A DNA stretch of 10,428 nucleotides from a virus. This document shows positions 1-10,428 of this stretch, piece by piece. Made by a program: the position numbers and the translations under genes. The stretch is taken from UHGV virus genome UHGV-0062899. The stretch is one strand, 5' to 3'. The first letter of the stretch is position 1; every line of letters begins with the position of its first letter. The notes under the pieces are model-generated. The model had not been told where the DNA came from, did not search any database, and saw nothing but the letters and a program-made list of their open reading frames with translations.

Positions 1-1132
1 CCGCCCACCACTGCATCATTTCTCTGCGCTTATCGAAATACTGAGCATGGTTGTATATTCCGCGCACAGATCCTCCGTTGGCATGTGCCAGTTGCACTTC
101 AATAGCGTCAGCAGGCCATTCGTGCTCGTTCATAATCGTGCTGAATTCATGCCTGAATCCGTGACCGCTTTCCAGACCTTCATAGCCGATTTGTTTGATC
201 ACAAGCAGTACCGCGTTCTCGCAGATTGGCTTCTTCTTATCGTTGCGACCGGCAAAAACAAACTCTGATACTGGTTTGGTGATTGAGCTTAGCGTAGTGA
301 GAAGTTCAACCACCTGGTCTGACATAGGAACCACATGAATTTTGCGTCCCTTCATCACACTGGCGTCGATGGTGATAATCCTGTTTTCAAAATCGACGTT
401 CTTCCATAGCATGGAACGAAGCTCTTTTGTTCTGAGGGCTGTGTAGCGTAAAACTTTGGTCGCAATGAGCGATACGATGCTTCCTGAAAATGTTGCCAGT
501 GCTTTGTTAAATGCCGGGATCTGGTCTGCAGGAAGAAACGGGAAGTTTTTCTTGCGGTATCCCTTCATGGCGTCAGCAAGGTCAGGTGCCGGGTTATATT
601 TAGCCCTACCAGTGACAATAGCGTAACGGAAAACCTCTCCGCATCTTCTGCGGGCTTTATTTGCTCGCTCCATTGCACCGCGATCTTCAAATCTGCGGAT
701 TACTTCCAGCAGTTGCATCGGCTCAATCTCCTGAATTTCAAGGCCGCCGATGATAGGTAAAATGTCGTCATCAAACATTTTTGCAAGTTCAGTCGCATAC
801 CCTACTGACCATACTTGCTTCTTGTGCTCGTACCATTCCTTGTAAATCGCACTAAAGGAATTGTTGTTAGACGAAGCCTTTTTCGCCTTTACCGGATCGA
901 TGCCAACCGAGATGTCTTTCCTCGCAGTCCATGCCTTATCCCTTGCCTCCTGCAAAGTCATTAGCGGATATTTTCCTACGGTCAGGATTTTCTCCTTACC
1001 GTCAATCTTGTAGCGAAGCTGCCATACCTTTTTCCCGGATACAGGGACATAAAGGTACAGGCCATTACCATCGAGAAGGCGGTATGGTTTTTCTTTCGGC
1101 TTTGCTGCTTCAATCTGCTTAACAGTGAGCAT
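1..1132 (-). CDS. int: P4-type tyrosine integrase, partial (C-terminal end beyond window start)
   Basis: Minus-strand frame open from ATG at 1130-1132 to the window edge; absent from the ORF track because it runs off the end. Translation starts MLTVKQIEAAKPKEKPYRLLDGNGLYLYVPVSGKKVWQLRYKIDGKEK, the arm-binding N-domain pattern of P4/CP4-57-type integrases. Near the window start it reads HGFRHEFSTIMNEHEWPADAIEVQLAHANGGSVRGIYNHAQYFDKRREMMQWW, giving the H-x-x-R box and catalytic Tyr region. About 377 codons are present; the last ~30-40 are missing. Confidence 0.9.
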   Translation of the reverse strand, partial: MLTVKQIEAAKPKEKPYRLLDGNGLYLYVPVSGKKVWQLRYKIDGKEKILTVGKYPLMTLQEARDKAWTARKDISVGIDPVKAKKASSNNNSFSAIYKEWYEHKKQVWSVGYATELAKMFDDDILPIIGGLEIQEIEPMQLLEVIRRFEDRGAMERANKARRRCGEVFRYAIVTGRAKYNPAPDLADAMKGYRKKNFPFLPADQIPAFNKALATFSGSIVSLIATKVLRYTALRTKELRSMLWKNVDFENRIITIDASVMKGRKIHVVPMSDQVVELLTTLSSITKPVSEFVFAGRNDKKKPICENAVLLVIKQIGYEGLESGHGFRHEFSTIMNEHEWPADAIEVQLAHANGGSVRGIYNHAQYFDKRREMMQWWA

Positions 1133-1148
1133 GGGTAAAAATCCGGTG

Positions 1149-1166
1149 GGATAAATTATTTTATCC
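1149..1166. promoter_or_regulatory. Inverted repeat GGATAAA-TTAT-TTTATCC just upstream of the integrase start
   Basis: Perfect 7-bp arms with 4-bp spacer, 17 bp upstream of the int ATG, in an AT-rich leader with no strong Shine-Dalgarno. Function as operator or IHF-like site is inferred only. Confidence 0.3.
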
Positions 1167-1293
1167 ACTTTTTACCCGTCATGGAGTGCGGCTGTCAACG
1201 ATCTGAAGCGAACCATGACGAACTATGAATCTACGGAAGGCTTGATATTAAGGGGGTTTTGCGGACTGGTACGGATGGGAGCGAACTGATAAA

Positions 1294-1316
1294 TGGCGTC
1301 CCTGCAGGAATCGTCT
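1294..1316 (-). other. Candidate att core: tRNA 3-prime-end-like fragment (T-arm/acceptor/CCA-like)
   Basis: Minus strand reads GACGATTCCTGCAGGGACGCCA, resembling the end of a tRNA (GATTCC T-loop-like, 7-nt acceptor-like, ends CCA). From memory it resembles a tRNA-Arg-type 3-prime end. The adjacent ~75 nt are AT-rich and cannot fold as a tRNA body, so this is a fragment. It lies ~160 bp upstream of the P4-type int, where P4-like attP cores sit. Confidence 0.35.
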
Positions 1317-1444
1317 TTTAATTTAACTTATTGATATTTATTGATTATAGTTTTATTGGCTGTTAGATGTACCCGTTATTGTACCCGTTTGATAGCGTAC
1401 TACTGGCCTGTTATTAGCGATATCTATCACCGCTGTTAAAGCAC

Positions 1445-1470
1445 TGCAACCCCTATAGATAGGGGCTGCA
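1445..1470 (-). terminator. Hairpin immediately downstream of the Ogr/Delta-like gene; possible terminator
   Basis: TGCAACCCCT-ATAGAT-AGGGGCTGCA: a 10-bp stem with one G-U position, starting 8 nt past the stop at 1478. The minus-strand RNA continues GUGCUUUAACAG, only a weak U-tract. Confidence 0.4.
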
Positions 1471-1477
1471 TGGGTAT

Positions 1478-1711
1478 TTACAGCGTTTTTTCCTGGTGGC
1501 TGATCGGGAACTTGTCCGGTGGAAGGGCTTCAAGGGTATGTGATGGCAAATCGGGACGGTTAAGCGTGCAGTAAATCTCTGTCATAGAGATAAACGTCAG
1601 GCCACACTTAAGGTTCTGGCACTGATGATAGCTTTTTCTTACCAGGTCGCTGAGTTCAACGCTGGTTCTTGTCTTCGCCGTTGCATGGCATTGAGGGCAA
1701 CGCATAGCCAT
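1478..1711 (-). CDS. Ogr/Delta-family zinc-finger late transcription activator (77 aa)
   Basis: MAMRCPQCHATAKTRTSVELSDLVRKSYHQCQNLKCGLTF has the C-x2-C-x22-C-x4-C spacing and the RTS / YHQCQN motifs of P2 Ogr and P4 Delta. GAGGAG Shine-Dalgarno sits 8 nt upstream of the ATG. Confidence 0.85.
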   Translation of the reverse strand: MAMRCPQCHATAKTRTSVELSDLVRKSYHQCQNLKCGLTFISMTEIYCTLNRPDLPSHTLEALPPDKFPISHQEKTL

Positions 1712-1726
1712 ATGCGCTTCTCCTCT

Positions 1727-1770
1727 GGTCTGGTTAGTATCGCAATAATAATACCATACTGAACCAGACC
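1727..1770. promoter_or_regulatory. Long imperfect inverted repeat between the capsid-like gene and the Ogr/Delta-like gene
   Basis: GGTCTGGTTAGTAT (1727-1740) and ATACTGAACCAGACC (1756-1770): 14-bp arms with a one-base bulge around a 15-nt AT-rich loop. The stem base abuts the GAGGAG Shine-Dalgarno at 1720-1725 and no U-tract follows, so it is not a classical terminator. Confidence 0.35.
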
Positions 1771-1779
1771 GGAGACGGG

Positions 1780-2817
1780 TTAACGCTGATCGTTACCCCA
1801 GATAATCCCTTCAATCAGGCATCCCTTGCCGTAGTCTTCGACCACATAGGCGTTATTCCACGAATCATAGGTTGAGACGCGGTTAAATTCCGGTTCTTCC
1901 GAGATTTTGCGGCGGTGTGTTCCTGTTTGCCAGTACAAAGACAGATTATCAAGCGAAGTAACCAGCATCGCATTTTGAGGAAAGAACGGAATTGGGCAAA
2001 CGGGAAGCCCTCCGATCTGACGGTTCTCATTTTGTAATGCTAAAGCGAGCAACTCTTTATTTGGTGTCACTCCAAGATTATTAACAAAGGGATAATACTT
2101 TCCTGTAATCAATGAGAGATTACAAATAACAACAAGATCTGAATCCCCGGTGTGCCACGGATCTAATAATTCCTGATATGCCTCCATCGTCAGAGAGTCA
2201 ATAGTACCGTAATCCCCGCTGGACTCGATAATATTGGCGTTATTGCGGCGACTGACCGATACACCATTAACCACGCGGGCTGAGGCATTTCGCCGCCACT
2301 TTTCTAACCAGCCGGTATTAACATCCTGAAGCAACGGGTTAGCAGTAATATCTGATTTAGCCGCATGGTGAGTGCCATAAATGCCAGTCAGTATTACATC
2401 CAGTGCCTGACGGCGATAAATCTGGCTCTCCATATGCCCGAAGAAATTATCAAGGCCCGCCCACTGATCCAGTTTCTCATAAGAAACATAGGTATCAGTA
2501 TTCACCTGCTCACAACGGTATCGGTCAGTCTCTGCTGTACAACCTTGTACGGGCTGGCGTGCCTCTGTCGTTGAGTTGTTCGTACTGGACAGCGGTACAG
2601 ATGTAAGCCCGATCGACTCTTCTTCCTGCTCGTCCACTTCCAGAATATTTATCTGTTTAAGTAAATCTGCGCTTTCCTGCATCTTATCAACAATAGTTTG
2701 CGATGCAGATGGTGTAAGTGAAAAGGAAATCCCATCCAGCTTTGAACTGTTCAGCTTATTTTGTGATGCCTGCAATAAGCACCATGCATCATATTTTTCT
2801 CTGGTGCTGTTTTTCAT
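1780..2817 (-). CDS. P2 gpN-family major capsid protein homolog (345 aa)
   Basis: Conserved blocks match my recollection of P2 gpN along the whole length: MQESADLLKQINI, RQP, RYRCEQVNTDTY, NPLLQDVNTGWLEKWR, SGDYGTIDSLTMEA, DPWHTGDSDLVVI, GKYYPFVNN, LDNLSLYW, THRRKISEEPEFNRV, YVVEDYGKGCLIE. Length is close to gpN (about 357 aa). GGAG lies ~10 nt upstream of the ATG. Confidence 0.75.
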   Translation of the reverse strand: MKNSTREKYDAWCLLQASQNKLNSSKLDGISFSLTPSASQTIVDKMQESADLLKQINILEVDEQEEESIGLTSVPLSSTNNSTTEARQPVQGCTAETDRYRCEQVNTDTYVSYEKLDQWAGLDNFFGHMESQIYRRQALDVILTGIYGTHHAAKSDITANPLLQDVNTGWLEKWRRNASARVVNGVSVSRRNNANIIESSGDYGTIDSLTMEAYQELLDPWHTGDSDLVVICNLSLITGKYYPFVNNLGVTPNKELLALALQNENRQIGGLPVCPIPFFPQNAMLVTSLDNLSLYWQTGTHRRKISEEPEFNRVSTYDSWNNAYVVEDYGKGCLIEGIIWGNDQR

Positions 2818-2854
2818 ATAAAAAACTCCATTGATGGTATGAATTTAATCAAGA

Positions 2855-3592
2855 CTATTTTCTGAATGGCTCAATCCCCGCCGCCAGTCTCTTCTTATAA
2901 TCCATATCAGAGCGTGCTTTAGATTCCTGAATTGGCGAAGGACTGTTATTTAACGCATGGTTAATACTGCCAGACAATGCACCGGGGAAAAATGCCAGTA
3001 CAGGATCGCTGAAAAGACTACTGTCAGCATCACTCAATAATTCACGTACAACCGTTCTGGAGTCAACGCGAAGTAACTTCATAAATTCATCTGATAATAT
3101 TCTTTCTGCATCACTGGTGTTTAATCCTGCCAGAGAATAAAGCCCAATGACGACAGACAATCGCTCACCAACCAGCGCTCTGAGGTCGTCTTTAAGAGAC
3201 TGGAGAAAAGAATCCGCAATCACTGACGAAAGTTTAAAATAAGCCTCTTTCGTCTGGCGTGCCTGGCTTGCGGTTTGAATCCGTAGATCAAGCACCGTCA
3301 GGCTCTGGGATTCAATCAACTCCTGGATTTTTTGAAGCTTTACCATCACCTGCGCTGCGGACAGTGCCGCACCATCTGTTTCCGCACTTTCAACGCCTCC
3401 GTTCCTGAGCAACGCAAGCCCCCAGTCACCGGCACTATGGCCCGCGTTTGACTCCACTTCTATTTTTCGCTTTGTCTCGCTCAGGTTGGCAAGCACCTTC
3501 TCTTCGTCTGAAAGAGACTTATAGGCACGGTCAAATAGCTCTTTCTGCTGCTGGTAACTCACGAGTAATGCCTGCATGTTGTTTTGTGTCAT
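2855..3592 (-). CDS. Alpha-helical protein, possibly a Sid-like external scaffold / capsid size-determination protein (245 aa)
   Basis: Real-looking ORF forming an operon with the two genes downstream. It is rich in L/A/E/Q/S helical segments. Its size (245 aa vs 244 for P4 Sid) and position upstream of an Ogr/Delta-like gene fit Sid, and a segment SAGDWGLALLRNGGVES loosely matches what I recall of Sid. Functional call is tentative. Confidence 0.45.
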   Translation of the reverse strand: MTQNNMQALLVSYQQQKELFDRAYKSLSDEEKVLANLSETKRKIEVESNAGHSAGDWGLALLRNGGVESAETDGAALSAAQVMVKLQKIQELIESQSLTVLDLRIQTASQARQTKEAYFKLSSVIADSFLQSLKDDLRALVGERLSVVIGLYSLAGLNTSDAERILSDEFMKLLRVDSRTVVRELLSDADSSLFSDPVLAFFPGALSGSINHALNNSPSPIQESKARSDMDYKKRLAAGIEPFRK

Positions 3593-3747
3593 CGTCCTGC
3601 ACCTTGTGATTATTGCGATGGGAAAATGATTGCAGGAAAAATAAATCCAGTCGCACCGTTAAGGTTGTCAGGGGTGTACTACACCTATAAGCATCATTCG
3701 TCCCGGACGGTTTGCGCAGATAATGCAGACAGGCCAAAGGAGGAACT

Positions 3748-3957
3748 ATGCCCACATTACCCAGAAATAACAGGTCGGTGCTGAAATCACTGAGGATCCC
3801 CAATGAACTGGATCAGTACATAGTGGCGATGAGCAAGCGAAGTGGTGCGAGCTATTGTCGTTGCCTGATCGAACTGGCCGGTGCGGGTCTGCTGGCTAAA
3901 GGGATCGGGCGAATAGCCGTTCCTGAGATCGATTCCTGCCGGAAACATCGAATATAA
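3748..3957 (+). CDS. Small ribbon-helix-helix-like DNA-binding protein (69 aa), candidate regulator
   Basis: AAGGAGG Shine-Dalgarno 4-5 nt upstream of the ATG. KSLRIPNELDQYIVAMSKRSGASYCRCLIELA fits the beta-strand/helix/helix pattern of Arc/MetJ/CopG-type proteins. It is the only plus-strand gene and is divergent from the morphogenesis operon. A GATAAT -10-like hexamer lies at 3719-3724. Confidence 0.55.
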   Translation: MPTLPRNNRSVLKSLRIPNELDQYIVAMSKRSGASYCRCLIELAGAGLLAKGIGRIAVPEIDSCRKHRI

Positions 3958-4126
3958 CCCCGCCCAGCCCGTACGAGCGGGTGTATTACACATCCAGCCG
4001 CATACGCTCATATGGTACAGATCTGCCCTTGAATCCTTCACGATCTAGCCTGATGGGTGCCGTTCCCTTCAAAAAAATTGATGCATTAACACAAAAAGAT
4101 GTGATCAACTACCAGATGCAATATAA

Positions 4127-4160
4127 GCCTCTCAGAGCCACGCTGAGAGGTGTTTTCATT
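4127..4160 (+). terminator. Rho-independent terminator (plus strand)
   Basis: GCCTCTCAG-AGCCACG-CTGAGAGGT: a 9-bp stem with terminal G-U and 7-nt loop, followed by GTTTTCATT. It lies 170 bp downstream of the RHH-like gene. Confidence 0.5.
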
Positions 4161-4253
4161 ATCCACCTTCCTGCATTACCCATCTATAAAACGCATCACA
4201 TCAAGCCGGAGAATAATCAGGATATGCCATCCTGTCTCACCTCTCAGCGCGCG

Positions 4254-4281
4254 CTTGTTCCCCCGCCTCGCCCGCACGCAG
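4254..4281 (-). other. cos-like site (P2/P4/186-type cohesive-end sequence)
   Basis: Minus strand reads GGCGAGGCGGGGGAACAAGCGCGCGCTGAGAGG. The first 12 nt equal the start of the P2/P4 19-nt cohesive end as I recall it (GGCGAGGCGGGGAAAGCAC), and a CGCGCTGA block follows as I recall for P4. A chance 12-mer match in this window is improbable. Confidence 0.5.
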
Positions 4282-4589
4282 AAAGCCCGCTTTTTTGTGC
4301 AAATGTGCAGTCCGGCCAAAGCCGTGCCCCGTCTGGGCTGGAGTGGCAAAAGTACCATCAAAAAAATTGTGCATTAGCGTGCAAATTTGTGCGGTGATTT
4401 TGCAGCGATCATTTTCACCTTAAAAAGAGCCAAACTCCGGCTGCGCCCGGGCCAGTTATGCACGCTGTTTTCGTGTTGCACAATGTTGATTTATTGCCCT
4501 CGGTGCACGCTGATTTGAAAGTGAAGTGTGAAAAAAGGGTTAACAGAAAAAGAGCTGTTTTACTGAAAAACTGAGGGGAGGTACGGAAG

Positions 4590-4860
4590 TCGGTTACAAC
4601 GGTTACGGGGGTGAAATAATATGCTTAACTCAATGATTTATATTAATTAAATTTGTAACCTTTGTGAGGTTACAAAAGGTTCCATTAAAGTTACACCCAA
4701 TAAAATCAATCAGTTAAATATCTAAGTTGTAACTTTAGATAAGGTTACAGAGTAACCCGATCGTAACCCGGTTGTAACTTTTCCAAGTTGGTGAAAATTA
4801 CATATAAATCAATATAATATATTTATATCTTTACTTTGTAACTTTTGTAACCCGTTTCCG
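4590..4860. repeat. Iteron array (about 12 copies of GGTTACAA/TTGTAACC, both orientations) around an AT-rich core; putative replication origin or integrase arm sites
   Basis: Copies at 4592-4599, 4601-4607, 4653-4660, 4668-4675, 4689-4696, 4736-4743, 4743-4750, 4751-4758, 4761-4768, 4772-4779, 4836-4843 and 4846-4854. An AT-rich stretch at 4795-4835 lies among them. The array is non-coding and sits just downstream of the int2/primase operon. Confidence 0.6.
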
Positions 4861-5127
4861 ATCCCCCCCCTCAAATTCTGGAAAATCTGCTTTTTTTTAA
4901 AAAAGGCTTCTTTTCTGTTAAATGTTTTGTCATTTCGCCAAATGTCCGGCAATGGCTCCACTCCGGCAAACACTGCCACTTACGGCAGTGCTGGCCATAC
5001 ATCGAGTACAGTCATTTTTAACCGTGCTGCAGAACGGTCAGAAACGACGGTGATCCGGGCGATGAGGGCGTAATGCAGAACAGCTAAAAACGAAGGGAAT
5101 ATATCTACGCTACGAGGGAAAGGGGTA

Positions 5128-5147
5128 AACCGGCCCGTCAGCCGGTC
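5128..5147 (-). terminator. Possible terminator hairpin directly after the P2-type integrase stop
   Basis: Minus-strand RNA has a GC-rich stem ACCGGC/GCCGGU with a 5-6 nt loop, followed by UUUACCCCUUUCCC. The stem is short. Confidence 0.35.
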
Positions 5148-5149
5148 AT

Positions 5150-6130
5150 TCAGAGGCTGATTCCGCCAGAAAGGGGATTGAGTGAAACGGCGTGTTGCAG
5201 ATAGTCAGGCGCAACATGCGCATAAACCATCGTCTGCTGGATACTGGCGTGACCAAGAATTTGTTGTAAGGCGATAATATTGCCCCCGTTCATCATGAAC
5301 CAGCTTGCAAACGTATGGCGAAGCACATGCGTAGCCTGCCCGCGCGGCAGGTCCGGCTTAACCTCCCTAAGCCGCCCGCAAAAGGCTTCATAGTCAACGC
5401 TGAACAGCGGCCCGCAATCGCGGGTTTTGATCTCTTTTTCCAGTTCATCCGATATTGGGATCGTGCGCCTCTTCCCGTTTTTGGTTTTAAGAAAAGTTAC
5501 GCGTCCGTGGTTAATCTGCTCTCCCCGCAGTGTGCTGCCTTCTCCCCAGCGTGCGCCGGTGCTGAGGCACAAAAGAGCAACACGGCGATCGTCACCTGTA
5601 AGGGTATTCAATAATCGACTGATTTCCGATTTAGTAAGGTAGGTCATTGCTGCTGGTTTCTCCCTCAATGGCTCCAGCCCTTTACAGGGGTTATCAGCCT
5701 TGAATTCATCCAGTTTTATCAGGGCGCTGAACATACCCGAAAGGCGATATATATCACGGTTGACGGTGGCCGTGCTGATCCCTGAATCCAGCCGCTCGCT
5801 GCGATGCTGCGCGATGATTCGTTTAGTCAGCCGGTTAACTGCCGGGTTGCCCAGGGCTCTGATCGTTTTATCTAGGTGTCGTTTTTCGGCGTTTCCGTTC
5901 TCCAGCGTCCGGCCATACAGCAGCCACCAGATGTTTAGCAGCTCGCTGAGAGTACGCCGATCGGTGCTGGCGCCCAACCACTCTTTTTTATCGGCATTCG
6001 CCATAACATACCGTTCAAAGAGCGCTGCCTCCTGCTTTCTGTCAAAAATCCTGCGAAAGCGCTTACCGCTGCGCCCTCTGGCATAAATATCGACTTCATA
6101 ACGCCCGTCAGCCCGTTTTTTAATGGTCAT
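5150..6130 (-). CDS. int: P2-Int-like tyrosine recombinase, complete (326 aa)
   Basis: N-terminus MTIKKRADGRYEVDIYARGRSGKRFRRIFDRKQEA matches my recollection of P2/186-type integrases. Catalytic set is complete: LSTGARWGE (Arg I), KTKNGKRRTIPIS (Lys), HVLRHTFAS (His/Arg II), LGHASIQQT (His III), MVYAHV (Tyr). GAGGAA Shine-Dalgarno 8 nt upstream; start is 16 nt after the primase stop. Confidence 0.85.
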   Translation of the reverse strand: MTIKKRADGRYEVDIYARGRSGKRFRRIFDRKQEAALFERYVMANADKKEWLGASTDRRTLSELLNIWWLLYGRTLENGNAEKRHLDKTIRALGNPAVNRLTKRIIAQHRSERLDSGISTATVNRDIYRLSGMFSALIKLDEFKADNPCKGLEPLREKPAAMTYLTKSEISRLLNTLTGDDRRVALLCLSTGARWGEGSTLRGEQINHGRVTFLKTKNGKRRTIPISDELEKEIKTRDCGPLFSVDYEAFCGRLREVKPDLPRGQATHVLRHTFASWFMMNGGNIIALQQILGHASIQQTMVYAHVAPDYLQHAVSLNPLSGGISL

Positions 6131-6145
6131 ACTATTGTTCCTCTG

Positions 6146-8815
6146 CTACTGAGCGGCCGGCACTTTAAAAATCCAGCATTTCACCTGCTCAGGCTCTTTC
6201 GGGCCAGCCTCTCCACGCCCCTGATTTGCCAGTCTGGAAACCTCACTTCTTACCGTCTTCTGGCCCGTACACGGCCGCATACGCCCGTTTTTCAGGTAAT
6301 CCTGAATTTCTTTCGCCGGGGGAATATTTACACGCTGCATAGCAGCTATACGCATCAGGTGAGGGAAGTTAATGGCGATCTCGTCGCGATTCTCTTTCCC
6401 AAAATGGTTGACGCCGAAACGCTCCAGGCTATTCAGATAATCAAAGGCATCCCAGAACTCACGAACCACAGGGATATCCGCTTCCAGCGATTTAACCCGC
6501 TCCACCGCCATCACAGTAAGCTGTTCACAGGTGCGATCGAGGCGTTCTGCGGGAATATCCAGAACACAGGTCAGCGCCCTTACACATGCAATCATCTGGG
6601 CATGATTTTTGGCAATTCGGATATGACGAATTTCAGAGTGTTGTTCCAGCCTGATTTTTTCGGCCTCATACACCTCCTGAATAATCGACAATACTGCGCT
6701 TTCCCTGCATACCGCCCGGATCATAAAACCAGATACCTGATCGACCGGCAGACGCTCAAGGCGTTCAGCCGCCGCCCTGGTCAGCGATGACTGACGGCGT
6801 TTATCCGTAAACACATGGATAATACGTTCCAGTATCGCAGGTGAGGCGTTAACGGTGGCATTCTGCGCGATGACAATGCTGCCCCTGAATGGCGGCTCTC
6901 TGGTTTCATTGTTGTTGGTCTTAACACCAATCGCCCGTAATCCGCGCCCGTTGTAGAGCGGTTTTAGCTCATCGAAGTCAAAGCCGCGCAGCTTCTTCGT
7001 GTCTTGGGCGCGATCGCCTTCAAGCAGCACGACGGGAAGGTTTGAGACCTGGGCGAAGTTACGATAAATGCCCGCAACAGAACCCTTTGAAGGGTCAATT
7101 CCCTCATAGCTGTCCCTGCCACAGAGCCGCCAGAGAAAATCAATCAGCGTGGATTTACCTGTTCCCGGTTCACCGATAATCTCCAGAAAGGGAAAGCTGG
7201 CCTGCTGTTCGCGTATCTGTTCAACGAAGAATGTTCCCAGCCAGAATGCCAGCGCGACATAGCCATTTTCACCAAAAGCCGTCCAGATATCATCGGCCCA
7301 GCCTGACGAAAGCGAATTATCATCAGAATTGATATTGATTAACGGGGATCGGCTCAGTGTCTTGATATTCATCCCACCAATCTCAAAGTAATCTTCGCTG
7401 TTCAAGGAGTAGACCTTCCCGTTATGTATCGCCAGCTTATTGAATACCCATGCCCGCCAGTCCCTGTTATACCCAATAAAGTCCTGCGTCCTGACCTCTT
7501 TGATCCGGGGCAGATCCTTTTTAATCAGACCATCGAGCTGCTGGCTGGTTCCGGTATAGAGCGCACCTTTTGCCACATGGAGGAGACGCTTTTTAAACTC
7601 AGACGCAGAAGAGATCTGCCCCGCGGTAAAGGAGTCTTTCACTGCGGGTGTATTGCCTGGAAAGGCGATGCGAAAATAATACCAGGACTCGTCTGTAACT
7701 TCTGAACGCATAAAATACAGCGGTGCGGGGTGACAATTGGCTATTTCCTTAATTGCTCCAGACTCTTTCAATGCAATACTTCTGGCTTCACGTTCATCAT
7801 TAACTTTTTTATCGTTAAGGATACGCTCAACGGCCTTCATATGGCGCTCAATGTCCAGCTTAAACCAGTACACGCAGTTCCCGTATTCGAAGTGAAACTC
7901 AGGGCGTTCATTATGTTCAAACATCCGAAGCGCCTTATCTCGGGCGCTTTCCGCCAGCAACAGATCGCCGTAATAGCGGTACTCTTTCTGGTGTCGTCTG
8001 GTCAGCTTTCCGGTAAGGTGGAGATCGTTCCAGTCAGCTTTATTGCTCCCCTGTGAAGGAAGTGCGGCAACGGCTTTCCAGCCTTGTTCACGGCTCCGCG
8101 CCACATGGCGACGTATGGCTGTTTCCCCTGCTTTCCCATTGTCCAGCGCCCAGACAAGAAACGGCTTTTCTTTGCCCTGGAATTGTTCAGCAAGCGCTTT
8201 AAGCGCGGCTTCCGGGTAGTTTCCGGCAGTCATAATGGAAACGGCAGGGGTGCCGTTCTGATAAAGGCTAATGGCGTCAAAAATCCCCTCAGTTAGCCAG
8301 ATACAACTGACTTTAGCCAGATCCAGCGCTGGCGGAACCCACCAGTGACCGGCGTACTTACCGTGGAAGTTAGCCTTTCGATCAAAGCGTTCTGGCTTGT
8401 CGATAATCCGCTCCCACCAGATACCATCAGACAGGGCAAAGCGAACCGTTGCGCTTCCCATGCCGCCCTTATGGTAGCTTTCCTGCGTATAGCAGCCCTT
8501 TAAGCAGGTAGTATCCAGCCCTCTGGCTTCTCTCAGATAGGCTTCCGCAGCGGCAAAAGGCTGCTCAGGCGTGCTCTCATAGCGATCTGACCATGAGTTA
8601 AATAATTCAGGATAGAGCGATTTTACCGACAGATCAGCGCCGCAATTATTTTCCCGGCCACAGCGCAGCACCCAAGGATTTTCCATGCTGGTAAAGAGTT
8701 CTTTCTTGTTACATTCAGGGCAAATACCTGAGCGCAGATAGCCGTTCTGCTCTTTAAACTGGTAATCATGCACCAGTCGTTTTATGATTTCGGGGCGTAG
8801 ATCTTTTCTGTTCAT
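6146..8815 (-). CDS. Bifunctional primase / P-loop NTPase replication protein (zinc-ribbon + Toprim + Walker A/B), P4 alpha-like (889 aa)
   Basis: N-terminal C-x2-C-x16-C-x5-C zinc ribbon (CPECNKK...RCGRENNC); Toprim-like motifs IWLTEGIFDAISLY and LVWALDNGKAG; Walker A GEPGTGKST with downstream VVLLEGD (Walker B-like). AAGGA Shine-Dalgarno 7 nt upstream of the ATG. Confidence 0.85.
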   Translation of the reverse strand: MNRKDLRPEIIKRLVHDYQFKEQNGYLRSGICPECNKKELFTSMENPWVLRCGRENNCGADLSVKSLYPELFNSWSDRYESTPEQPFAAAEAYLREARGLDTTCLKGCYTQESYHKGGMGSATVRFALSDGIWWERIIDKPERFDRKANFHGKYAGHWWVPPALDLAKVSCIWLTEGIFDAISLYQNGTPAVSIMTAGNYPEAALKALAEQFQGKEKPFLVWALDNGKAGETAIRRHVARSREQGWKAVAALPSQGSNKADWNDLHLTGKLTRRHQKEYRYYGDLLLAESARDKALRMFEHNERPEFHFEYGNCVYWFKLDIERHMKAVERILNDKKVNDEREARSIALKESGAIKEIANCHPAPLYFMRSEVTDESWYYFRIAFPGNTPAVKDSFTAGQISSASEFKKRLLHVAKGALYTGTSQQLDGLIKKDLPRIKEVRTQDFIGYNRDWRAWVFNKLAIHNGKVYSLNSEDYFEIGGMNIKTLSRSPLININSDDNSLSSGWADDIWTAFGENGYVALAFWLGTFFVEQIREQQASFPFLEIIGEPGTGKSTLIDFLWRLCGRDSYEGIDPSKGSVAGIYRNFAQVSNLPVVLLEGDRAQDTKKLRGFDFDELKPLYNGRGLRAIGVKTNNNETREPPFRGSIVIAQNATVNASPAILERIIHVFTDKRRQSSLTRAAAERLERLPVDQVSGFMIRAVCRESAVLSIIQEVYEAEKIRLEQHSEIRHIRIAKNHAQMIACVRALTCVLDIPAERLDRTCEQLTVMAVERVKSLEADIPVVREFWDAFDYLNSLERFGVNHFGKENRDEIAINFPHLMRIAAMQRVNIPPAKEIQDYLKNGRMRPCTGQKTVRSEVSRLANQGRGEAGPKEPEQVKCWIFKVPAAQ

Positions 8816-8826
8816 ATAAAATCCTT

Positions 8827-8849
8827 AAGCGCCGCTCATCACGGCGCTT
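8827..8849. promoter_or_regulatory. Stem-loop abutting the primase ribosome-binding site
   Basis: AAGCGCCG-CTCATCA-CGGCGCTT, a perfect 8-bp stem, between the 87-aa ORF stop (8855) and the primase Shine-Dalgarno (8823-8827). On the plus strand a T-rich run follows (TTTTATTTCAC). On the sense minus strand it is followed by UUAAGGAUUUUAU. Confidence 0.35.
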
Positions 8850-8854
8850 TTATT

Positions 8855-9118
8855 TCACTCTTTGTCTTCTTGTACAGCATGTCCCAGATATTTGTCACAA
8901 ATCCCCAGGCGTTTAACTTCCTGTAGTACTGATGAAATATCTTCACTGATATAACTGAAAATATCCGGTATCCATAAGAGTGGCATCGCGTTAGCTTCAC
9001 ACTGGCGAATATGTAAATGCATCTGAAATGCGACATTCCTCGCGCGATTCAGTTTGTGATAATTCTCAATACTGAGGTGAGACGGATTAACACTCTGAAT
9101 ATGATTACTTGTTGTCAT
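8855..9118 (-). CDS. Hypothetical protein (87 aa)
   Basis: AGAGGA Shine-Dalgarno 5-6 nt upstream of the ATG; same strand as the replication operon; no family recognised. Confidence 0.5.
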   Translation of the reverse strand: MTTSNHIQSVNPSHLSIENYHKLNRARNVAFQMHLHIRQCEANAMPLLWIPDIFSYISEDISSVLQEVKRLGICDKYLGHAVQEDKE

Positions 9119-9195
9119 GGCATAGTCCTCTTTCGACGGATGAAGGCATCCCCCGAAAATTAATTCGGTTTAAACTGACTCAGATTAAATACGTG

Positions 9196-9429
9196 TTATC
9201 GGCTCTGATTAATAAATAATGGCGTGATTATTTCCAGCACCTTTAGCGCTTTAAAATGCGTTAATCCTTCCCAACGTAGCTGGGCCGTAGCCCGGATTAT
9301 TGCATCATCGCGATTAAGCGCCTCAACCGTCACCTGTGCACTGCGCGTATAACCTTTACGCGTCACCGCATAACCAGAAACCTGATAAGATTTATTCCTT
9401 GTTACTTTACCGCGAAAGATATTAGCCAT
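9196..9429 (-). CDS. Hypothetical small protein g5 (77 aa)
   Basis: Start ATGGCTAA overlaps the stop of the upstream gene by 8 nt (translational coupling). Basic protein; no family recognised. Confidence 0.55.
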   Translation of the reverse strand: MANIFRGKVTRNKSYQVSGYAVTRKGYTRSAQVTVEALNRDDAIIRATAQLRWEGLTHFKALKVLEIITPLFINQSR

Positions 9430-9616
9430 GTTTCACCTTCCCGACTGTTACGGTGTATTCATTATCATCGGCATATTTCCCGTTACAGGTAATAACATCG
9501 GCCATTTTACAGGCTGCTTTCACCGCCTTAACGGATGATTTATATTCCTGCGTGCTTTGATAATTTTGTATTTCGCCAGTAATAACGTTACGGCAGGTAA
9601 TGAACAGTTTATACAT
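9422..9616 (-). CDS. Hypothetical small protein g4 (64 aa), paralog of g3
   Basis: Start taken at the internal ATG (MYKLFIT...) preceded by GGAGG and overlapping the g3 stop (ATGTATAA). N-terminus and length resemble g3. Confidence 0.55.
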   Translation of the reverse strand: MYKLFITCRNVITGEIQNYQSTQEYKSSVKAVKAACKMADVITCNGKYADDNEYTVTVGKVKHG

Positions 9617-9800
9617 TTCCGGCCTCCGCAATTTTCACAATACATTCATGCGTTACGGTGCCGATGGCATTCTTATGGATATACGCCATTTTCTGCGCGT
9701 CTTTCCATGCAGCTTCGCGGGTTTTATAGCGGCCAATGTGAACCAGTTCGCGCCGGTCGCCAGCTTCGTGATTAATCAGGGTGATAAGCAGTTTAAACAT
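9609..9800 (-). CDS. Hypothetical small protein g3 (63 aa), paralog of g4
   Basis: Start taken at ATG (MFKLLIT...) overlapping the g2 stop (ATGTTTAA), preceded by GAGGTGG. The track ORF is 4 codons longer at its 5-prime end. Confidence 0.55.
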   Translation of the reverse strand: MFKLLITLINHEAGDRRELVHIGRYKTREAAWKDAQKMAYIHKNAIGTVTHECIVKIAEAGNV

Positions 9801-10047
9801 GAGCCACCTCACGAGCTGTTATCCGATCTTTTAATTCAGCAATTAAGCGGTTCAGGACGTCCCGCCCTTTATCGTTCAAAGCGTCAAGGCCGTAATCGTA
9901 AGCGGCAAAAATGGCGATCTCCATTTCACGCGAATCTATTTCAACCGTTACTTTTGTACCTGGCTTGATGAAAGCTGGCGGCGCGTAGTGGTTATCATGG
10001 AACGGGTTAAGTGTTGCGGCTTTTTGGTTATCAAGGGGGTTAAACAT
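9793..10047 (-). CDS. Hypothetical small protein g2 (84 aa)
   Basis: Start taken at ATG (MFNPLDNQ...) overlapping the g1 stop (ATGTTTAA), preceded by GAGGTGG. C-terminus is REVAHV, the same as g1. Confidence 0.55.
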   Translation of the reverse strand: MFNPLDNQKAATLNPFHDNHYAPPAFIKPGTKVTVEIDSREMEIAIFAAYDYGLDALNDKGRDVLNRLIAELKDRITAREVAHV

Positions 10048-10237
10048 GGGCCACCTCGCGAACCGGCAGACGACCGGCAAAAGAGGCGATAAATTCACGC
10101 GCTATAACGCGGCGTGCGGCCTGATAGGTTGAGGCGGTGACTTCTTCACGGTGTGGACGTGCGGACACGTCAGAACGGCGCACAGCGAGAAAAAGCCAAA
10201 CAAATTGGGGATGCAATGGGGCAGGGGTTGTCATCAT
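10040..10237 (-). CDS. Hypothetical small protein g1 (65 aa); alternative longer start at 10417
   Basis: ATG-ATG pair with AAGGAG 9 nt upstream (MMTTPAPLHPQF...). The frame stays open upstream to 10417 (125-aa track ORF), but that extension has no ribosome-binding site and contains a dyad repeat. Confidence 0.45.
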   Translation of the reverse strand: MMTTPAPLHPQFVWLFLAVRRSDVSARPHREEVTASTYQAARRVIAREFIASFAGRLPVREVAHV

Positions 10238-10266
10238 AATGATGATCTCCTTGTACTTAATTAAGG

Positions 10267-10307
10267 AGTCACCACCGGAGTTTCCACGCTCATGATTGGT
10301 GGTGACA
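10267..10307. promoter_or_regulatory. Dyad symmetry element upstream of the small-ORF cassette; candidate operator
   Basis: AGTCACCACC (10267-10276) and GGTGGTGACT (10298-10307): perfect 10-bp inverted arms with a 21-bp spacer, ~30 bp upstream of the g1 start. A near-palindrome TCATCATAATGATGA (10231-10245) covers the start codon. Confidence 0.3.
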
Positions 10308-10428
10308 CTGACAGGGGTGGAAATACCGGCGTACAAGGAGACCGGCCAGCCCGAAAGCTGCCCTGCCAGAGCCACCATTGATACTGCGCGGATCTGCTCC
10401 GCTGAATATGGTGGCACTGATTTAACGA

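Follow-up and report, generated by a model that had tools for sequence, protein, structure and literature searches.

A displaced argW 3′ end between intS and a satellite-like island, very probably an internal attachment junction of a tandem array

Features around an orphan argW 3′ end

The window, that is, the whole stretch of 10,428 nucleotides analysed here, belongs to the virus genome UHGV-0062899. Its left end (1..1132, minus strand) holds the first 377 of the 385 codons of intS, identified from E. coli annotations, from identity to phage int genes and from Pfam. Its start codon is the ATG at 1132-1130 (and not at 1133), the gene is read leftward, and all 377 in-window codons are uninterrupted. 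Its product carries the Pfam domains Arm-DNA-bind_3, Phage_int_M and Phage_integrase, so that the “P4-type int” of the initial annotation is right as a family description, the gene being specifically intS. At the DNA level, intS is 96% identical to the int genes of HK620, Sf6 and CUS-3. The phage records of HK620, Sf6, CUS-3 and IME10 match positions 1-1307 at about 96% and have annotated attP or attL cores there, the 16-nt core being annotated in the HK620 and CUS-3 records. In a megablast search of 5,426 complete E. coli genomes, about 2,200 matched just positions 1 to ~1313, their annotation for the gene being “prophage integrase IntS”, and a tRNA-Arg gene continues straight from 1313 in the majority of them. 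The left integrase is thus IntS, of the KplE1/CPS-53 and HK620/Sf6 type, which integrates at argW.

Positions 1133..1292 (minus strand) correspond to the P′ arm of the IntS attL and contain the intS promoter, as judged from identity to the attL of strain S1, from motifs and from the published attL of KplE1. Motif searches gave arm-type-like sites GGGTAAAA at 1170-1177 and GGATAAAA at 1159-1166 (both minus strand), and an inverted GGGTAAAA over the intS start codon at 1133-1140 (plus strand); a promoter-like −35/−10 pair was predicted from 1182 to 1155 (minus strand). For KplE1 (CPS-53), a defective prophage of E. coli K-12, a duplicated core of 16 nt, CTGCAGGGGACACCAT, has been defined, the intS promoter overlaps the P′ arm of attL, and the arm-type sites of IntS contain TAAA (PMC2951348). 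Since the GGGTAAAA and GGATAAAA sites and the promoter-like site fit this published attL, we identify 1133-1292 as the known P′ arm of IntS.

The initial annotation had noticed a tRNA-end-like segment about 160 bp upstream of the integrase gene, with no tRNA body adjoining it. Such a segment is indeed present, 162 bp upstream of the intS start: the last 20 nt of the E. coli tRNA-Arg gene argW occupy 1294-1313 (minus strand), one G short and without a tRNA body. The plus strand reads TGGCGTCCCTGCAGGAATC at 1294-1312 (reverse complement GATTCCTGCAGGGACGCCA), and identity with argW reaches one base past 1312, to 1313. In KCJ3K291 and strain S1, where the tRNA gene sharing this end was found, argW ends in GATTCCTGCAGGGGACGCCA, from which the fragment differs by a single missing G within the G-run at 1300-1302 (GGG in the window versus GGGG). 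ARAGORN found no tRNA anywhere in the window and Rfam gave no RNA family match on 1000-1800 at E ≤ 1, so the fragment is truly orphaned.

Strain S1 reads ...GGTTCGATTCCTGCAGGGGACGCCA|TTTATCAGTTCGC..., a complete argW followed by exactly the sequence of the window from 1293 leftward, and it is this join that identifies the orphan fragment as the last 20 nt of argW. Positions 1-1313 are 99.92% identical to the argW-intS attL of S1, the missing G being the sole difference. On the B side, where an IntS attL has the body of argW, the sequence beyond 1313 is unrelated to argW and contains no tRNA.

From an alignment of eight sequences (A2) and from comparison with argW and phage att sites, we delimited the core (CGATTCCTGCAGGG-ACGCCA+T), which is the argW 3′ end in a displaced copy, at 1293..1313 (minus strand). 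Matches to phage attP sites end at 1307 and those to argW-attL sites at 1313. At 1307-1293 the window reads CTGCA-GGGACGCCAT, the 16-nt IntS core with one deletion and one substitution. The substitution (A>G) falls at the discriminator position and also occurs, alone, in the intact attL of strain S1.

Positions 1314..1400 (minus strand) form the P arm, or right end, of a satellite-like island; they are related neither to the argW body nor to the P arm of HK620 in alignment A2. The tandem direct repeat GTACCCGTT reported by the initial annotation at 1369-1377 and 1381-1389 is present and really consists of two direct copies of TGTACCCGTT (1368-1377 and 1380-1389; AACGGGTAC on the minus strand) with a spacing of 12 bp. 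Between these repeats and the core, TATCAATAAGTTA at 1324-1336 (minus strand) matches the IHF consensus WATCAANNNNTTR; the ATCAAT core is aligned at the same place in E92 and HK620 in A2, and the ATCAA element may be an IHF site. The TTGAT(A/T)T motif, which had been put forward as a further arm-type site, was rejected: it has two copies in the region (1242 and 1331) and eight in the whole window, without enrichment, and one of the regional copies lies inside the IHF-consensus match. TTGATTA at 1341 does not fit the motif and was discarded as a third copy.

Further right, a hairpin with an 11-bp stem (1441..1470, minus strand; inverted repeat I1; fold −21 kcal/mol, z = −3.05) lies just 3′ of the stop codon of the ogr/delta gene. 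A terminator scan of 1050-1800 called none, the hairpin having no U-tract, and it probably marks the end of the ogr/delta transcript. The last gene of the island (1478..1711, minus strand) encodes a homologue of the Ogr/Delta zinc-finger late-gene activators of 77 aa (PF04606, 9.8e-16; phrog_603). The island body (1780..10428, minus strand) contains a P2-family major capsid gene (345 aa, 1780-2817; PF05125, TIGR01551, phrog_70), a 245-aa ORF (2855-3592), a second tyrosine recombinase (326 aa, 5150-6130; Int_N and Phage_integrase, Xer-like by NCBIfam), a toprim-domain primase (889 aa, 6146-8815), small ORFs and the start of an Icd-like gene, all on the minus strand.

The argW locus in complete E. 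coli genomes

Among the 5,426 complete E. coli genomes, megablast returned one full-length match to the window, KCJ3K291, with 99.5% identity. In the direction of the tRNA strand, the order in this genome is yfdC, an intact argW, a 419-aa tyrosine integrase, HTH and Icd-like genes, five small ORFs, the 889-aa toprim primase, the 326-aa tyrosine recombinase, the 245-aa hypothetical protein, the P2-family major capsid (345 aa), Ogr/Delta, a core copy, intS, a decayed prophage of about 10 kb containing pseudogenes and IS elements, torI, another copy of the core and dsdC. The other boundary of the element, whose mapping the initial annotation had recommended, is thus found in KCJ3K291, where argW and the 419-aa island integrase lie side by side about 2.5 kb past the end of the window, argW being 11.6 kb to the right of the junction.

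The three core copies of KCJ3K291 (locus L001) are located in argW (31921-31995), at the junction (20294-20313) and on the torI side (9841-9854); the window has the middle one, and the first alone sits on a complete tRNA. There, argW ends in ...CGATTCCTGCAGGGGACGCCAT|GACACC..., followed 115 bp further on by GCGGGTACAAAAACGGGTAT, an inverted GTACCCGTT and the start of the integrase gene. The argW 3′ end, repeated directly over 22 bp, flanks the island, of about 11.6 kb, on both sides. A P arm of the HK620 type lies beside torI, where the prophage remnant ends, and is followed by the third core copy, which is one G short and abuts host DNA of the dsdC side. The 20-mer of the orphan fragment has argW and the junction as its sole sites in the 48 kb KCJ3K291 locus, with a chance expectation of 0.

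The comparison of the window with KCJ3K291 (L001 19001-29429) revealed a mosaic. Positions 1-1313 exhibit 55 differences (95.8% identity), the last of them at 1297 and 1299, inside the core, and positions 1314-10428 only 2 differences in 9,115 bp (99.98%). Because identity switches in this way at the core, the two flanks have separate histories, and such a sharp switch is the expected look of a site-specific recombination seam between two unrelated elements. The same island is therefore found beside two intS alleles differing at 55 of 1,313 positions, which suggests either a recent horizontal spread of the island between lineages or a replacement of the intS side by recombination. The discriminator sequence is ACGCCA in the argW of KCJ3K291 and ACACCA at its junction, and the junction of the window has ACGCCA, as in attL sites of the S1 type; this pattern fits a crossover 5′ of the discriminator base.

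The junction of KCJ3K291 has GGGG and that of the window GGG, in spite of virtually identical islands. The missing G is therefore most simply explained as a later slip in a redundant copy, or as a homopolymer error. The same GGG was found in the torI-side attR of KCJ3K291 (L001 9841-9854), all other copies examined having GGGG. One G was thus lost independently in two non-tRNA copies and never in the copy completing argW, which suggests slippage under relaxed constraint, or again homopolymer sequencing error. If real, the one-base deletion could impair strand exchange by either integrase.

The same chromosomal site is empty in 912 of the 5,426 genomes, in which yfdC, argW and dsdC are contiguous (the query was an in silico fusion of argW with the dsdC-side flank); the native, uninterrupted end in ATCC 8739 is GGGGACACCA. 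An IntS attL is present at argW in about 1,890 of these genomes. The window-type island was recovered in KCJ3K291 alone (1/5,426) and an island/IntS junction of the E92 type in 20. The E92 island is divergent, its primase being 60% and its integrase 77% identical to those of the window-type island, and has argW on one side and, on the other, the intS of a P22/Sf6-like prophage that appears intact.

Within the 48 kb KCJ3K291 locus, GTACCCGTT has 3 copies for 0.22 expected, all of them in the two att arms of the island, and the motif recurs beside the island's own integrase (L001 31760-31805). The E92 island exhibits the same layout, with two direct GGGTAC in P and two direct plus one inverted in P′. 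This conservation and this position, next to the island's own integrase and in E92, are the reasons why the GTACCCGTT/CGGGTAC repeats are best read as candidate arm-type sites of the island integrase and not of IntS. The suggestion that the repeats are arm-type sites could thus be retained, although not for the adjacent integrase.

We then compared the att geometry of the window (1133-1400) with L001 31742-31925 and L004 1368-1470. The IntS and the island systems are nearly superimposable: 12 bp separate the P-arm sites, which lie some 60-75 bp away from the core; the distance between the core and the first P′ site is 115-116 bp; and an inverted arm site is located at the start of the integrase gene. 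The arm-site sequences differ between the two systems (ACGGGTAC versus GGGTAAAA; candidate arm-site oligonucleotide sequences for the two integrases are AACGGGTACAA and GCGGGTAAAATA), a difference that could keep both elements independent. An ACGGGTA kernel is nevertheless common to both (TACCCGTCAT at 1173-1182 versus TACCCGTTAT at 1370-1379). The island integrase (419 aa) is 31% identical to IntS and has the same three domains. In view of the shared geometry and of the ACGGGTA kernel, the two integration modules look like diverged homologues targeting the same core.

Origin of the junction

We propose, with a probability of about 0.9, that the fragment is an internal att junction of a tandem array at the tRNA-Arg gene argW. 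One possibility raised by the initial annotation, that its first integrase belongs to a second element in tandem, is the correct one, as the island's own integrase beside argW, the seam at the core and the gene order of KCJ3K291 show. The core is at once the attR core of the island and the attL core of the IntS prophage. At least three direct cores and an integrase for each unit in KCJ3K291, an uninterrupted attB in other genomes and independent histories of the two flanks characterise the locus. The window stops before the island integrase and argW, and the tandem structure was read from KCJ3K291, whose island side is 99.98% identical and whose intS allele is different; the genome from which the window derives presumably continues in the same way.

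The following order of events would account for the junction. A prophage of the IntS type (KplE1/HK620/Sf6 family) would have integrated first at argW, producing an argW-core-P′-intS attL as in strain S1. The island of about 11.6 kb, whose attP would share about 22 bp with the argW 3′ end, would then have entered the same tRNA 3′ end by means of its own P4-type tyrosine integrase. The core copy brought by the island would now complete argW beside the island integrase, and the older copy would have been displaced 11.6 kb downstream, between the P arm of the island and the P′ arm, promoter and gene of IntS. The resulting site would be P(island)-core-P′(IntS), an island attR fused to a prophage attL, and the missing G would have arisen after integration. 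A circular form of the island may coexist with the integrated one.

Tandem arrays formed by re-use of restored cores have been documented (PMC7192596). In these Islander/TIGER arrays, a second element enters the core restored by the first, so that a complete tRNA is followed by element 1, a copy of the core, element 2 and one more core, each unit having an integrase. The present locus follows the same scheme in every essential respect; its two integrases, distant homologues with 31% identity, use the same core. The IntS side resembles the argW module of KplE1 (CPS-53), HK620, Sf6 and CUS-3 in its integrase gene (about 96% DNA identity to the phage versions) and in its P′ arm, whose TAAA-containing arm sites overlap the start codon and the promoter. 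Its core matches the 16-nt sequence except for one deletion and one substitution. Unlike in the KplE1 attL, the B side is the end of another mobile element instead of the argW body, and the core is one G short.

The initial annotation had read the segment as an attP configuration, possibly of an excised or episomal form. A single excised element with the adjacent int as its integrase would explain why mobile-element genes lie on both sides without a tRNA body, and two related islands of about 12 kb (L007 and L008) are whole, circularly permuted contigs that could be circular forms. We nevertheless consider this reading highly improbable. The true IntS attP, that of HK620, is ...CCAATGGGTAAAATAGCGGGTAAAATATTTCTC...CAAGTAGATGT|CTGCAGGGGACACCAT|TTATCAGTTCGC..., and has a different P arm: the window shares with it the core and everything leftward (alignment A2), but reads ...AAACGGGTACAATAACGGGTACATCTAACAGCC...TATCAATAAGTTAAATTAAAAGA|CGATTCC... 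to the right of the core, and the HK620/KplE1-type P arm (GGGTAAAATAGCGGGTAAAATA, about 60 bp from the core) is absent from 1314-1400. The arm motifs also differ from one side to the other (GGGTAAAA versus CGGGTAC), the core is where identity to KCJ3K291 rises from 95.8% to 99.98%, and the island of KCJ3K291 has its own integrase by argW, flanked by the same CGGGTAC motif. Finally, this complete genome has the same junction in its chromosome, an intact argW and a second integrase being located 11.6 kb to its right. We attach a negligible probability to an assembly chimera and to a fortuitous likeness to a tRNA end. The core is found in three or more copies at the locus, and repeated sequences may lead to misassembly, but this repeat measures just about 22 bp, the junction recurs in a complete genome that was assembled independently and its analogue in 20 others, and the expectation for the 20-mer makes chance an implausible source.

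The remaining alternative concerns present activity alone and is compatible with a tandem origin: the junction could be an inert, decayed scar that neither integrase recombines any longer, both elements being fixed. Tyrosine recombinases generally need matching overlap regions, and the core is one G short compared with every copy examined except the GGG attR of KCJ3K291. The IntS prophage of KCJ3K291 is heavily decayed, with IS elements and pseudogenes. Moreover, the 220-bp attL substrate used in vitro includes tRNA T-arm sequence (primer, PMC3509656), which is mostly replaced here. We consider this reading doubtful, since intS is intact across all 377 in-window codons, the two arms are intact in all other respects and differ little from functional ones, the presence of a 99.98% identical island in two strains with different intS alleles argues for recent mobility, and KplE1 still excises despite its decay (PMC2951348). 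The “old scar” of the initial annotation is thus acceptable in the narrow sense of a displaced, redundant copy of the tRNA end that lost one G, and not otherwise.

A tandem array at argW would be an ordinary outcome of two integrative elements sharing one tRNA site, and its IntS side has already been characterised experimentally; as tandem arrays at tRNA genes are well documented, the junction is of low interest by itself. It carries a lesson for annotation, in that an orphan tRNA end amid element genes is usually the seam of a tandem array and not an attP, and such seams can be placed to the base by strain comparison. With their common core and distinct arm sites, the two homologous integrases also provide a natural system for studying the arm-site specificity of co-resident elements. 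The more unusual item at the locus is the island, with its own capsid gene.

Gene content and relatives of the island

The capsid gene is full length, PF05125 matching over positions 2-327 of 327 (6e-99) and phrog_70 with 5e-108, and scores above the TIGR01551 equivalog cut-off. No deposited phage capsid protein is more than 49% identical to its product, and all matches are to P2-like phages of 31-37 kb. The island of about 11.6 kb combines a full-length, divergent P2-family capsid with an absence of portal, terminase and tail genes. The primase matches those of P2-like phages, with 56% identity for ESSI2_ev239 and 47% for RSY1 (Ralstonia); P4 does not appear among the best 15 of its 42 matches.

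The island resembles P4 at leuX by its P4-type integrase (Arm-DNA-bind_3), its attP just upstream of int, the duplication of a tRNA 3′ end, its Ogr/Delta-type activator, its Icd-like gene and its large primase, the island integrase lying outside the window. Unlike P4, it targets argW instead of leuX, carries a second tyrosine recombinase as well as a P2-family major capsid gene of full length, and gave no Pfam, PHROG or NCBIfam match to the capsid-size and decoration proteins Sid and Psu in the ORFs scanned. We thus call the right-hand element satellite-like and do not file it as a member of the P4 family. With its capsid, 245-aa ORF and Ogr/Delta gene, this element of about 11.6 kb may represent an undescribed kind of P2-parasitising satellite, and our literature searches found no description of satellites with a P2-family capsid or of such islands. 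The 245-aa protein had no Pfam, PHROG, NCBIfam or PDB sequence match, and a scan of genome contigs with it gave 0 relatives.

The same scan with the primase recovered 7 loci and showed that Kluyvera, Izhakiella and Erwinia dacicola have relatives in which this gene set is accompanied by other integrases; none of the 7 is at argW and none has the core. Two related islands cover whole contigs, L007 (12,723 bp) and L008 (11,984 bp), and are circularly permuted relative to each other, as would be expected for circular, episomal or multi-copy forms; the Bacillota MAG label of L007 is probably a binning error. As for the window-type island itself, an exact search for its P-arm repeat in IMG/VR viral contigs gave 0 matches, so that no packaged or circular form of it was found.

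More speculatively, these islands might form an undescribed class of enterobacterial satellites of about 12 kb, defined by a divergent P2-family capsid, an Ogr/Delta activator, a primase of the P2-phage type and a second recombinase. Their integration module would be a diverged IntS module in which GGGTAAAA changed to CGGGTAC, allowing them to stack by IntS prophages without cross-excision. If this tentative reading, for which we see less than even chances, were true, the att junction would be a functional orthogonal double site and not a scar.

The 326-aa recombinase gene lies directly downstream of the primase gene, and its product is 86-87% identical in the Kluyvera, Izhakiella and Erwinia relatives, whose terminal integrases differ; dimer resolution and an inversion switch are possibilities for its role. 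An AT-rich stretch of about 750 bp (window ~4400-5150) has no annotated gene in KCJ3K291 and may contain an origin, iterons or operators of the island. Within it, the motif AAAGTTACAA/TTGTAACTTT is present four times, in both orientations, at 4687-4698, 4727-4736, 4770-4781 and 4836-4845.
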